From a virus (Duplodnaviria > Caudoviricetes): DNA of 30,532 nucleotides. Both the position numbers and the translations under genes were made by a program. Under the pieces are notes generated by a model. That model was not told where the DNA came from, did no database searches, and saw only the letters and a list, made by a program, of their open reading frames with translations. This document shows, piece after piece, positions 438-29,851 of the stretch. The stretch's first letter is position 1, and every line of letters starts with the position of its first letter. The stretch is from the IMG/VR virus record IMGVR_UViG_3300020045_005271, positions 1 to 30,532 of that record. One strand, 5' to 3'.

Positions 438-665
438 ATGACTTGCAAAAACTTTAAGCCAGACCACTCAACCGAATTAGACGGCTGGGGACAATGTCAG
501 AAAATAATCGATTTTAAAGCCAAAGGAGCGACACCAGCTATGTGCATATCAGTTATTCACGAAAAGCTCAATGGTGGGCAATTTTGCGCGGGAAATTACA
601 TATTTGAAAGGGCTTGTTGTGATGAAACGAAAGGCTGTGAAAAGTTTGAAGAATCGGATAATTAA
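438..665 (+). CDS. Cys-rich hypothetical protein
   Basis: 75 aa ORF with upstream AGGA. Starts TCKNF and ends GCEKFE, a common pattern in small phage metal-binding proteins. Confidence 0.75.
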   Translation: MTCKNFKPDHSTELDGWGQCQKIIDFKAKGATPAMCISVIHEKLNGGQFCAGNYIFERACCDETKGCEKFEESDN

Positions 666-680
666 TGGTAATTTAAAATA

Positions 681-709
681 TTGATAATTATCTTAAAAGC
701 GACTATCAT
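681..709 (+). promoter_or_regulatory. Sigma70-type promoter
   Basis: TTGATA (681-686), 17 bp spacer, TATCAT (704-709), in an intergenic gap. Confidence 0.65.
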
Positions 710-758
710 TTACCCAGCGTCACAACTGGTGGCGCGTTAATCAAAAATTGGAGATATT

Positions 759-944
759 ATGGGAATCGAAAAAAGAAAAGTCGGGAGACCGTCAAAGTAT
801 GAGCCTACCAAGCCAGTTAATGGAGAGTTAAGTCACAAGCAGTTTGATAGACTCAGCGCGTATTGTGCAAAGAATGAAGCTGTTAAGCAGCGTGTGGTGG
901 CGCGGGCGATACAAGAATTTTTAGATAGGGAGGAGCTGGCATGA
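759..944 (+). CDS. Small DNA-binding protein, ribbon-helix-helix-like, with an N-terminal GRP motif
   Basis: KRKVGRPSK, then a short strand and two helices (LSHKQFDRLSAYCAKN, KQRVVARAIQEFL). GGAG RBS. Confidence 0.65.
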   Translation: MGIEKRKVGRPSKYEPTKPVNGELSHKQFDRLSAYCAKNEAVKQRVVARAIQEFLDREELA

Positions 945-1396
945 TTCAAATATACGAAACAAAGCGACCCGCGAAAAGCATAGGGTGGAATAAACACATC
1001 ATCTACCTAGGAACAGTCAGATCATACAATGAGCACGGCATTAAGCGAGACCCGCCACGCCCAAGGTCATCTTTTACAGTTACCGACAATTATTACAAAA
1101 ACCTATTCGCAGAGTTTTTGCTAAATAAAAATGATTTTTTAAAGGACAAAGGTGGGCGCGAATTGTTTTCAGTCGCTGAAATAGCTGAAACTATGGGGGT
1201 GTCAGTAACTCGATTGTCACGACACATGGATGATAAGTACATGGCGGTTTTTAGAGGGGCTAAGATTTACATAAAATCATTTGCCTGTACCCAGTTGTAC
1301 GGCAATGCAATATCTCTAAAAAATCACGCTATGTGGGCTAGTGCATCGGTAAAAGAGTGTAATGCGCACCTTGATAAATATCGGGCGAAGCCATGA
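941..1396 (+). CDS. Hypothetical protein with an HTH-like motif
   Basis: FSVAEIAETMGVSVTRLSRHM. ATGA overlap with the previous gene and GGAGG RBS. Confidence 0.65.
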   Translation: MIQIYETKRPAKSIGWNKHIIYLGTVRSYNEHGIKRDPPRPRSSFTVTDNYYKNLFAEFLLNKNDFLKDKGGRELFSVAEIAETMGVSVTRLSRHMDDKYMAVFRGAKIYIKSFACTQLYGNAISLKNHAMWASASVKECNAHLDKYRAKP

Positions 1397-1629
1397 AATG
1401 CACAAATTGCAATCACTTTGATACTTGTGCAAACCGCAATAAGTACGGTAAAGGCAAGGAAATGTACCCACCAGCGACACGGCTTGGAGTAAAGCCGTAT
1501 TGTTATGAGTGCCTACATATTTGGATGGTGATAGCATCCAGAAGGATTAGACAGTGCGTGAATACCGATTGCGGTTTGATTAAGCCGCTAAACGATGATA
1601 GCGTGCAAATTAAGCACACAAGGGGATAA
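1393..1629 (+). CDS. Cys-rich (Zn-binding-like) hypothetical protein
   Basis: CTNC, CYEC and CVNTDC motifs; ATGA overlap. Confidence 0.75.
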   Translation: MKCTNCNHFDTCANRNKYGKGKEMYPPATRLGVKPYCYECLHIWMVIASRRIRQCVNTDCGLIKPLNDDSVQIKHTRG

Positions 1630-1632
1630 AAT

Positions 1633-1869
1633 ATGATAAACGTAAAATTATTGACACTGCTAACACATGAAGAATTAGGTCAGTATGCAACTCACATTAG
1701 AACTGTAATCGACTGCGAGACAATTCTAGGAGAATGTAATTTAAGTATAGATTTAGCTAAAATTATTTTTGCCCAAAAAGTTGATTCAACGCTTGCTTAT
1801 AAAAACCTAGAATGGGATTGCATTCAGCGCATTAACTCAATTTTGGATTTGTGTCATGGCAAAGCCTAA
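1633..1869 (+). CDS. Hypothetical protein
   Basis: 78 aa, tightly packed in the operon, GGGG RBS. Confidence 0.7.
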   Translation: MINVKLLTLLTHEELGQYATHIRTVIDCETILGECNLSIDLAKIIFAQKVDSTLAYKNLEWDCIQRINSILDLCHGKA

Positions 1870-2044
1870 CGAACAACAGCTTTTAAATGCACGCGCCCGT
1901 GCAGTTGGTCATCGAATCGAGAATCTAGGCGCAGCGGGTAGTTATCGGGTGCATAATAAGGCAACTGGCGCGTATTTTATCGTATCAAAGAACGCTGAAT
2001 TGAGAGAGTTAATTGGTAATTTGGAGAAAGAGGCGTTAGCATGA
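1856..2044 (+). CDS. Hypothetical protein
   Basis: 62 aa, overlaps both neighbours. Confidence 0.7.
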   Translation: MAKPNEQQLLNARARAVGHRIENLGAAGSYRVHNKATGAYFIVSKNAELRELIGNLEKEALA

Positions 2045-2307
2045 CAGCCACACACTGCACAAACACAGACTGCTTGATCAGACAAACATGCAAAAAAGGT
2101 CTACCGATGCAAGACGGGCAGAGGTTTTTATTTTTATACCCTAAAAACGGCTTTCTGCAATGCCAAGACTTTGAGTGCTTAGAGTGTCATTTTAACCACG
2201 TTCACTTAGAGACACGCAAGCAGTGCCGAAAGTGCGGGAAGTATGAGAATGATGGTATAGAGTATATTTGTGTATGGCAGTTGACACCTGACGCTAGAAA
2301 TGCTTAA
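2041..2307 (+). CDS. Cys-rich hypothetical protein
   Basis: HCTNTDCLIRQTC, CLEC and CRKC motifs; ATGA overlap. Confidence 0.75.
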   Translation: MTATHCTNTDCLIRQTCKKGLPMQDGQRFLFLYPKNGFLQCQDFECLECHFNHVHLETRKQCRKCGKYENDGIEYICVWQLTPDARNA

Positions 2308-2314
2308 ATACGTC

Positions 2315-2404
2315 TAACAGTTCTCCAGCCTGTTGTTTTTCTCTATAATATGCTTTCTCCTAAATTGACCGCTACTTGAATTCCAACAGGTAGCGGTTTT
2401 TTTT
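2315..2404 (+). ncRNA. Candidate small RNA with anti-Shine-Dalgarno seeds
   Basis: Non-coding gap with TTGACA at 2281 upstream, two TTCTCC motifs and its own intrinsic terminator. Complementary to several phage RBS regions (see findings). Confidence 0.55.
2368..2404 (+). terminator. Rho-independent terminator
   Basis: Stem ACCGCTACTTG / CAGGTAGCGGT followed by a T run. Confidence 0.85.
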
Positions 2405-2431
2405 CGACTAAATTTTAGATTGTGGTATGAT
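2403..2431 (+). promoter_or_regulatory. Candidate promoter for the lysis/packaging operon
   Basis: Extended -10 TGgTATGAT (2423-2431) with a weak -35. Confidence 0.5.
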
Positions 2432-28903: not shown

Positions 28904-29083
28904 TTATGACTCCTTAAAAATTACGTTTCTGCCATTTATACACGATAAGATTCGTCTTGATTGAGCAGCGTATTCTTTCGGGCAAGTTTCAATCGGGTGA
29001 GTAAAGAAATAACAGCCTAAACATGAATCCACTGGCTTAGTCATTTCTAGCACTACGCCTTCTGGTAATCTATCATCACCCAT
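28904..29083 (-). CDS. 59 aa Cys-rich protein (not in ORF track)
   Basis: MGDDRLPEGVVLEMTKPVDSCLGCYF...NVIFKES; GGAG RBS. Confidence 0.7.
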   Translation of the reverse strand: MGDDRLPEGVVLEMTKPVDSCLGCYFFTHPIETCPKEYAAQSRRILSCINGRNVIFKES

Positions 29084-29175
29084 GTTCTTTTTCTCCAGCC
29101 TATCATTTGAGTGCTACGCGGTGATATTACCAATTGCTGAACCTGCTTAGGTGTTTTACTCACTTTCGTTTCCAT
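29053..29175 (-). CDS. Possible 40 aa protein (not in ORF track)
   Basis: METKVSKTPKQVQQLVISPR...; GAGGA upstream; fills the gap in the operon. Confidence 0.4.
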   Translation of the reverse strand: METKVSKTPKQVQQLVISPRSTQMIGWRKRTWVMIDYQKA

Positions 29176-29302: not shown

Positions 29303-29442
29303 TTAAACTGTCCCGCTACTTGCCCACTTAAAATTGCAACTAAAAAACACAATTGAACTATATCCATAGTTGCGCCAATAATCATAAAGCAGACTGCTGA
29401 AATTACGCTTATTAGTCTGCAAATATATAAAATATCTCTCAT
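29299..29442 (-). CDS. 47 aa two-TM membrane protein
   Basis: MRDILYICRLISVISAVCFMIIGATMDIVQLCFLVAILSG; ATGA coupling favours ATG 29442. Confidence 0.65.
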   Translation of the reverse strand: MRDILYICRLISVISAVCFMIIGATMDIVQLCFLVAILSGQVAGQFK

Positions 29443-29552
29443 GACATCCGCCCCCACTGACCGCAATTCATTAAATGACTTAGCCAAAAACTAAGACCTG
29501 ATTTAATCGCCTCATGGCAGCTTAGGCGATTTTGTTTTCTTTGGTTTTTCAT
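29439..29552 (-). CDS. 37 aa hypothetical protein (not in ORF track)
   Basis: MKNQRKQNRLSCHEAIKSGLSFWLSHLMNCGQWGRMS; GGAG RBS. Confidence 0.55.
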   Translation of the reverse strand: MKNQRKQNRLSCHEAIKSGLSFWLSHLMNCGQWGRMS

Positions 29553-29604
29553 GATGTTCTCCAGTTGTAAAAAACGACCACCGTTTCCAGTTGGCTAATA
29601 GTGG

Positions 29605-29760: not shown

Positions 29761-29822
29761 CTTGTAACTCCAGTTGTTACGGTCTAGTCGCCGACCGCTT
29801 AGCGTTTTAAAAAGTATGACTA

Positions 29823-29851
29823 ATAATAAACTTGTTTTTTCATCTGGTCAA
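29823..29851 (-). promoter_or_regulatory. Leftward early promoter
   Basis: Minus strand TTGACC, 17 bp spacer, TATTAT. Confidence 0.75.

Follow-up and report, generated by a model that had tools for sequence, protein, structure and literature searches.

Genome setting and candidate host

The window, meaning the whole stretch of DNA that was analysed (30,532 nt), is a phage record of 30.5 kb whose terminase, portal, capsid and ejection genes are P22-like. An sRNA-like unit sits between its last rightward ORF (2041-2307) and its first late-side ORF (2456). The surrounding genes and signals are the following:

29760 down to 23021, minus strand: leftward early operon, RecT included
29823..29851, minus strand: promoter-like site of the leftward early operon (TTGACC-17-TATTAT), recognised by its sequence
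29439..29552, minus strand: 37-aa early gene, immediately behind the first leftward terminator
28904..29083, minus strand: 59-aa Cys-rich early gene, predicted target of the RNA, function not assigned
29918 onward, plus 438-2307, plus strand: rightward early operon
2041..2307, plus strand: 88-aa Cys-rich ORF, whose 3' end holds the putative promoter of the predicted RNA
2404..2431, plus strand: distinct promoter-like site serving the late-side genes that follow

The product of gene 29083 matched no PHROG or Pfam family, and that of gene 29552 matched no Pfam family, this 37-aa gene being kept in all seven family sequences that cover the leftward region (7/7). The predicted structure of the ORF 2041 protein was a poor model (pLDDT 38).

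Neither a repressor nor an integrase was recognised among the 49 window proteins and most of the called proteins of two complete relatives. Between positions 29820 and 30250, divergent promoter-like sites occur without a CI-like gene and only a Cro-sized ORF (30028) follows, which suggests a lytic or non-integrating life style. Elsewhere, at 120-420, arrays of a repeat of about 10 nt (CTATCCCAA and its reverse) face each other across a CA-rich spacer and look like a replication origin with iterons.

Methylococcaceae are suggested as the host family. The closest genomic RecT was that of a Methylobacter MAG (77%), and genomes of the Methylobacter family (Methylococcaceae), the sole family searched, contained distant matches to the portal, capsid and ejection genes, with no CRISPR spacer among these matches. 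The junction of ORFs 2456 and 2743 (2728-2781) resembled the minD/minE junction of seven Methylococcaceae-family genomes over 35-56 nt (82-91% DNA identity; the gene context was read in L208, and L206 has an identical MinE start). The N-terminus of ORF 2743 begins like MinE, and this ORF is possibly a mimic of the MinE N-terminus or else a fragment captured from a host.

Anatomy, probable promoter and conservation of the predicted RNA

The preliminary description had proposed a non-coding unit of about 90 nt with TTGACA upstream, an imperfect -10 and its own terminator; TTGACA and the terminator were found where it had placed them. The parts of the unit are as follows:

2281..2286, plus strand: -35 hexamer TTGACA of the predicted promoter, doubling as Leu-Thr codons among the last codons of ORF 2041-2307
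2301..2309, plus strand: extended -10 (TG-n-TTAAAT), 17 nt past the -35 and overlapping the ORF 2041 stop codon
2316..2404, plus strand: predicted 89-nt small RNA with a putative start, kept in 12 sequences (73-94 nt) as a single copy per genome
2316..2334, plus strand: 5' hairpin of the consensus fold, with a pyrimidine-rich loop (UUCUCCAGC) holding seed 1
2337..2344, plus strand: single-stranded U/C-rich linker (UUUUCUCU), unpaired in the ensemble and variable in length
2353..2364, plus strand: seed 2 (CUUUCUCCUAAA), predicted partner of the 29552-family start region
2367..2404, plus strand: intrinsic terminator acting in one direction (stem 2367-2398, T run to 2404)

The 12 members comprised the window and 11 relatives obtained from protein and pattern searches (10 viral contigs that share a single dataset number, together with one metagenome contig), seven of the 11 having been retrieved independently of the 3' motif. 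All viral contigs encoding the ORF 2041 family also carried the unit (10/10). One member that keeps it is a myovirus, as its sheath and baseplate genes show, and another has a different portal type; the unit thus persists across differing virion modules and travels with the early module. Genes turned over on either flank, with PAPS-reductase-like genes upstream in L142 and L183 and morons downstream in five members.

Three further observations concern these flanks and modules. Near-identical early modules, compared between the window and G001, G002 and G004, were joined to podovirus-type and myovirus-type virion modules. Two different PAPS-reductase-like genes shared one insertion point, each being coupled to the stop codon that ends the ORF 2041 homologue (L163:13111-13890 and L183:4104-4844). 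Right behind the RNA terminator lay an insertion hot spot of 0.16-1.1 kb (L080:2900-3960, L083:11860-12640, L081:6550-6710, L145 and L183), where the insertions of L080 and L083 each contained their own promoter, small genes and a terminator.

A TG-n-hexamer was located 6 nt upstream of AACA in every member (12/12). The hexamer read TTAAAT in 11 of the 12, lacking the A at -11, and a consensus promoter scan did not pick it up. In L183 the upstream DNA was the end of an unrelated gene, yet TATAAT stood in the identical register, its TG coming from the stop codon of that gene. TTGACA was retained in 9 of the 10 members whose ORF end adjoins the RNA and had given way to an SD-like motif in the two members with an intervening gene; as it was lost where a gene intervenes, its Leu-Thr codons are dispensable for the ORF 2041 protein. 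On the basis of the register common to all 12 members, the TATAAT of L183 and the pattern of TTGACA, the start was placed near 2316, and the RNA likely has its own promoter. Because this promoter is of the sigma70 type, transcription of the RNA could begin as soon as infection does, with no built-in late timing. A second conserved element, TG-n-TAnnAT, preceded the first late-side gene in 12/12 members, including behind inserted morons. The TATAAT at 2344-2349 was rejected as a promoter, being missing in three members and variably spaced from any -35.

The terminator stem occurred in several versions, with three of its eight pairs changed on both sides (14 cells), so that the covariation sought by the preliminary description was found in the terminator but not in the 5' hairpin, where four of five pairs were invariant and none covaried, which is weak structural evidence. 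An apparent compensatory change in hairpin 1 (L081/L146) depended on the register and failed on alignment. The AACAG/CTGTT hairpin, in whose loop the first seed had been placed, is the consensus fold of the family and was present in 8 of the 12 individual folds, whereas the lowest-energy fold of the window RNA favours a different hairpin; UUCUCC is unpaired in either. The UCUCCU of seed 2 was invariant in 12/12, although this motif formed part of the search patterns for five of the 11 relatives.

The earlier argument against a gene on the opposite strand held, as the unit contains no minus-strand ATG in the window and no start codon was conserved among the homologues. A CsrA sponge on that strand was likewise rejected, the terminator facing the opposite way and the GGA loop being missing in two members. 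Judged from sequence alone, the unit has the general attributes of an sRNA (own promoter, intrinsic terminator, 50-300 nt, non-coding), and it is very probably a real, conserved sRNA-like gene.

No Rfam family was matched at the gathering level, the only two sub-threshold matches in 2150-2550 belonging to unrelated families. Among GenBank phages there was a single 34-nt match, inside a Clostridium phage gene, which was regarded as chance. A 16-mer seed pattern gave 57 matches, with L138 as the sole homologue among them, and zero matches across 185,579 prokaryote genomes. L174 and L179 have the 3' motif and terminator in common with the family, but were rejected as members at 26-27 bits and without the 5' part. 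Model R1 matched one of 121 candidate-host-family genomes, and this match was discarded: it is a U-rich terminator that follows minCDE and a small downstream gene, and the UCUCCU core is missing from it. The RNA had no match in four genomes carrying distant related prophage pieces, no sequencing run was listed as holding it, and Atlas searches returned merely leads below 0.9.

Predicted pairing with start regions

Two start regions of the leftward operon stood out as predicted targets:

29091..29108, minus strand: start region of gene 29083 (-25 to -8), covering GGAG; best predicted target
29556..29564, minus strand: Shine-Dalgarno region of gene 29552; second predicted target (9-bp match, rank 6 of 54)

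The pairing with gene 29083, described earlier as 11 consecutive pairs, proved to have been understated: with G-U pairs it forms an unbroken 18-bp helix between 2321-2338 and 29091-29108, in which all three non-Watson-Crick positions are G-U. This site was the sole exact 11-mer match for the 5' part of the RNA in the remaining genome, on both strands, and its ungapped helix (-25.6) was the best trans match on either genome strand. With accessibility included, it scored -18.1 kcal/mol, compared to -9.0 for the next of the 54 start regions. Among 1350 start regions taken from 59 unrelated phage loci, 484 of them with GGAG, there was no equal to this pairing. Its score was matched by 0/1000 shuffles preserving UCUCC (both cores) and by 1/1000 dinucleotide shuffles; a rerun gave 1/400.

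The three other matches of the preliminary description were all present, with less behind them. That of gene 29552 recurred in the orthologues but was modest, being equalled by 28 of the 484 unrelated GGAG sites. The match before ORF 438 ranked 13 of 54 and was weakened or lost in both orthologous genomes; only 1% of shuffles equalled it, a figure that applies to this one site picked among 54. The match before ORF 2041 (rank 12 of 54) was at chance level, with 19% of shuffles equalling it, and its GGAG lies 14 nt ahead of the ATG, within the upstream ORF. The matches of 438 and 2041 were unremarkable. As 9-mer matches were frequent (21 in the genome), the matches other than 29083 are, by this comparison of sequences, the ordinary yield of a U/C-rich RNA among 54 purine-rich start regions. 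Of the pairing with several early and middle genes first proposed, that with leftward early genes is supported (above all 29083 here and the 29552 family across genomes), but not that with 438, 2041 or the rightward early genes generally.

Six genomes contain both the RNA and the leftward operon, namely the window and five relatives, the gene starts of the relatives being those of the analyst's own caller. The leftward early class was defined from the window, and the five relatives were scored against core-preserving shuffles. Their best leftward sites gave p = 0.37, 0.017, 0.15, 0.018 and 0.032 (Fisher 0.0013, a value that treats closely related genomes as independent in a test framed after the relatives' rankings were known), compared to 0.48 for rightward and 0.22 for late sites; in G001 and G003 the leftward match was not significant. 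Across the six genomes, sites within the best 2% tail of the unrelated sites numbered 7/77 leftward, 0/110 rightward and 1/179 late, one of the seven leftward sites (G003) being a doubtful ORF without an SD core. GGAGAA was present in 1/164 late, 10/76 leftward and 73/1279 unrelated start regions.

The steadiest partner was gene 29552, whose orthologues ranked 4 of 58, 1 of 69, 7 of 76 and 3 of 38; the ranks of 1 to 7 cover five genomes, as the G004 orthologue was missed by the gene caller and is unranked. Pairing with this family was predicted in 6/6 genomes, mostly via the seed preceding the terminator, although the G004 RNA paired more strongly with the 29552 sites of other genomes than with its own. 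The 29083 site is private to the window, equivalents in the five relatives reaching -9 to -15 kcal/mol compared to -27. The claim that pairing extends beyond the CUCC core better than at random ribosome-binding sites is borne out by gene 29083, which surpassed all 1350, but not by the leftward GGAG class, whose median percentile among unrelated GGAG sites was 0.49 (n = 38; rightward 0.47, late 0.50).

In G002, CUCCUG replaces CUCCAG in the 5' loop, and UAGGAG replaces UGGAG at the first three leftward sites (A, not U, before GGAG), whereas the other five genomes have U before GGAG in 14 of 15 sites. This co-change represents one lineage, and two of its three sites resemble a duplication. When cognate and swapped combinations were compared, a preference for the cognate RNA appeared with the first three sites per genome (p = 0.02-0.03, with these sites chosen post hoc and the result owed to G002 and the window); over all listed sites there was no preference (p = 0.35 and 0.47). 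Taken together, the private 29083 site, the class-median GGAG sites and the weak cognate preference point to a few strong leftward targets per genome and to no uniform operon code.

Interpretation and alternative readings

The reading we prefer, with about as much doubt as confidence, is an anti-Shine-Dalgarno sRNA acting in trans, which likely turns down the genes at the head of the leftward early operon. Host sigma70 polymerase would initiate near 2316, and rightward early read-through would contribute transcripts with the same 3' end. First contact would be made by the 5' loop or the pre-terminator seed with sites of the CUGGAGAA or UAGGAGAA type, followed by extension of the helix, to 18 bp on gene 29083 and, in the 29552 family, across the SD towards the AUG. 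The extended helix would keep the 30S subunit off GGAG ribosome-binding sites and so block translation, and the accumulating RNA would cap or shut off the early leftward proteins. U tails are a possible Hfq-binding feature, and that of this RNA (U7-9) may bind Hfq. The best-pairing gene would vary among genomes because genes are swapped in the leftward operon. Capping of early expression is as good a fit as the switch proposed in the preliminary description. If true, a trans-acting RNA silencing several of its own phage's early genes through their ribosome-binding sites would give the lytic timetable a further, post-transcriptional level of control.

The same RNA might instead be aimed mainly at host mRNAs, specific ones or broadly through GGAG, the phage matches being a side effect. 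This is unlikely, though it would suit the invariant UCUCCU seed, a generic anti-SD, the change of best phage partner between genomes, and the precedent of lambda LPR1/PreS, which pairs chiefly with host RNAs (10.1101/2024.10.31.621285). Exact seed complements, however, stood before an ATG in only 11 and 3 of 201 candidate-host-family genomes, at mostly unrelated genes, in a strict test on a host family that is merely suggested, and the leftward-operon excess of matches would be left unexplained. Nor does it seem probable that the unit is simply the conserved 3' UTR and terminator of the rightward early operon, its complementarity arising by chance (pyrimidine tract versus purine-rich starts) or as an inverted-copy relic. 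The promoter hexamers do share bases with coding sequence and with a stop codon, the 5' hairpin lacks covariation, there is no class-wide pairing excess, and on its reverse strand the unit looks like the leftward start regions of this family; but such an origin sits poorly with the in-register TATAAT of L183 on unrelated DNA, the sharp conserved 5' boundary at AACA, the loss of TTGACA on displacement, and an 18-bp helix that falls on an SD with G-U at every non-Watson-Crick position.

The location at the early/late boundary, with promoter, leader and terminator directly before the late genes, recalls a lambda pR'-tR'-type late leader (cf. 6S RNA, StxS), which would be constitutive and read through by an antiterminator, any regulation being secondary. 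Its geometry is that of lambda pR' (-35, 17 nt, -10, 6 nt, AAC start), and A at +2 and T at +6 occur in 12/12 members, comparable to the lambda pause element AACGAT (PMC4005639), although the hairpin accounts equally for their conservation. We nevertheless consider this reading quite improbable, since in 12/12 members the late-side genes are preceded by a sigma70-type site of their own and morons of up to 1.1 kb lie between the late-side promoter site and the RNA in five of them (with terminators of their own in the three read, and also in L183). Lambda Q binds the -35/-10 spacer, which here is wholly replaced in 2/12 members. No Q was found, although a remote one is possible; the complete genome G002 lacks the only HTH candidate (941-1396), which also gave no Q match by profile or fold (low-confidence model). 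A decoy that binds protein or sponges RNA (Hfq, S1, a purine-rich host sRNA) in place of silencing mRNA would make sense of the mostly unstructured U/C-rich body, the repeated motifs and the long U tail, and VpdS competes for Hfq (PMC12197685). This is very improbable, as the transcribed strand has no GGA loops and the 18-bp SD match would be left unexplained.

Returning to an anti-SD RNA acting on the leftward operon, its mode of action would resemble that of P1 c4 or LhrC. The c4 RNA of P1/P7 pairs around the RBSs of its own phage's mRNAs via loops and blocks translation (PMC12197685). Like c4, the unit is phage-encoded and has loop sequences predicted to pair at own RBSs, but c4 governs an antirepressor in the immunity region, whereas generic anti-SD seeds and predicted targets in a distant operon are involved here. 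The unit did not match the Rfam c4 model, and neither among the genes of the window nor next to the RNA was there an antirepressor of an icd/ant operon (a Rha-like regulator of G004 lies elsewhere, within the late region). LhrC of Listeria is a short RNA of two hairpins that pairs with the SD through redundant CU-rich motifs, one kind displayed in a loop and the other single-stranded (PMC4132741, which cites RsaE and RNAIII alongside it). The hairpins and the placement of the CU-rich motifs are similar here; LhrC differs in being chromosomal, with UCCC, five copies and LisRK control, as opposed to a single phage copy with UCUCC and no sequence match, and neither three UCCC motifs nor a match to the LhrC family model was found in the unit. 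The Cuckoo RNAs of Alphaproteobacteria, with 2-4 hairpins each bearing CCUCCUCCC (PMC4615179), also display an anti-SD-like pyrimidine motif in loops, but such hairpins (Cuckoo / CcsR test) are absent from the unit.

With lambda 6S RNA and StxS the unit has in common a short promoter-to-terminator RNA at the early/late boundary and a similar promoter geometry (10.1101/2024.10.31.621285; PMC12197685), but differs in the downstream promoter of all members, the absence of a Q homologue among the proteins searched and the lack of positive sequence similarity. T4 RegB reaches the same end, the inactivation of early phage mRNAs via GGAG (PMC1702504), as a protein nuclease, whereas the RNA would act through base-pairing. 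In the review PMC12197685, characterised phage sRNAs are mostly cis-antisense, lysogeny regulators or host-targeting, and its Supplementary Table S1 contains 38 uncharacterised phage sRNAs, which could affect novelty. Literature searches, whose coverage leaves out most subscription journals, listed no report of an anti-SD RNA with which a phage silences its own early operon.

A broader proposal, possible yet doubtful, is that in a phage without a recognisable repressor or integrase one anti-SD RNA would serve as an operon-level switch, with CUGGAG/UAGGAG signatures placed on the first leftward genes and avoided by late genes, and with RNA and sites changing together. It would be an RNA counterpart of T4 RegB and one example of a possibly widespread undescribed class of phage early-gene silencers. 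The family provides natural experiments, in the rebuilt promoter of L183 and in the loop variant of G002 with its matching site variants.

Other elements were observed near the starts of the leftward operon. A conserved GGA-containing leader of about 90 nt, absent from the window, precedes the first leftward gene in three relatives (L165:2520-2640, L168:2760-2860 and L083:2480-2580) and is possibly a structured leader or a CsrA-type site. In the window (29765-29800) and its relatives, a conserved hairpin lies ahead of a leftward start region near the operon head. The repetition of GGAG...GTCATG start regions suggests gene cassettes swapped via short homology.
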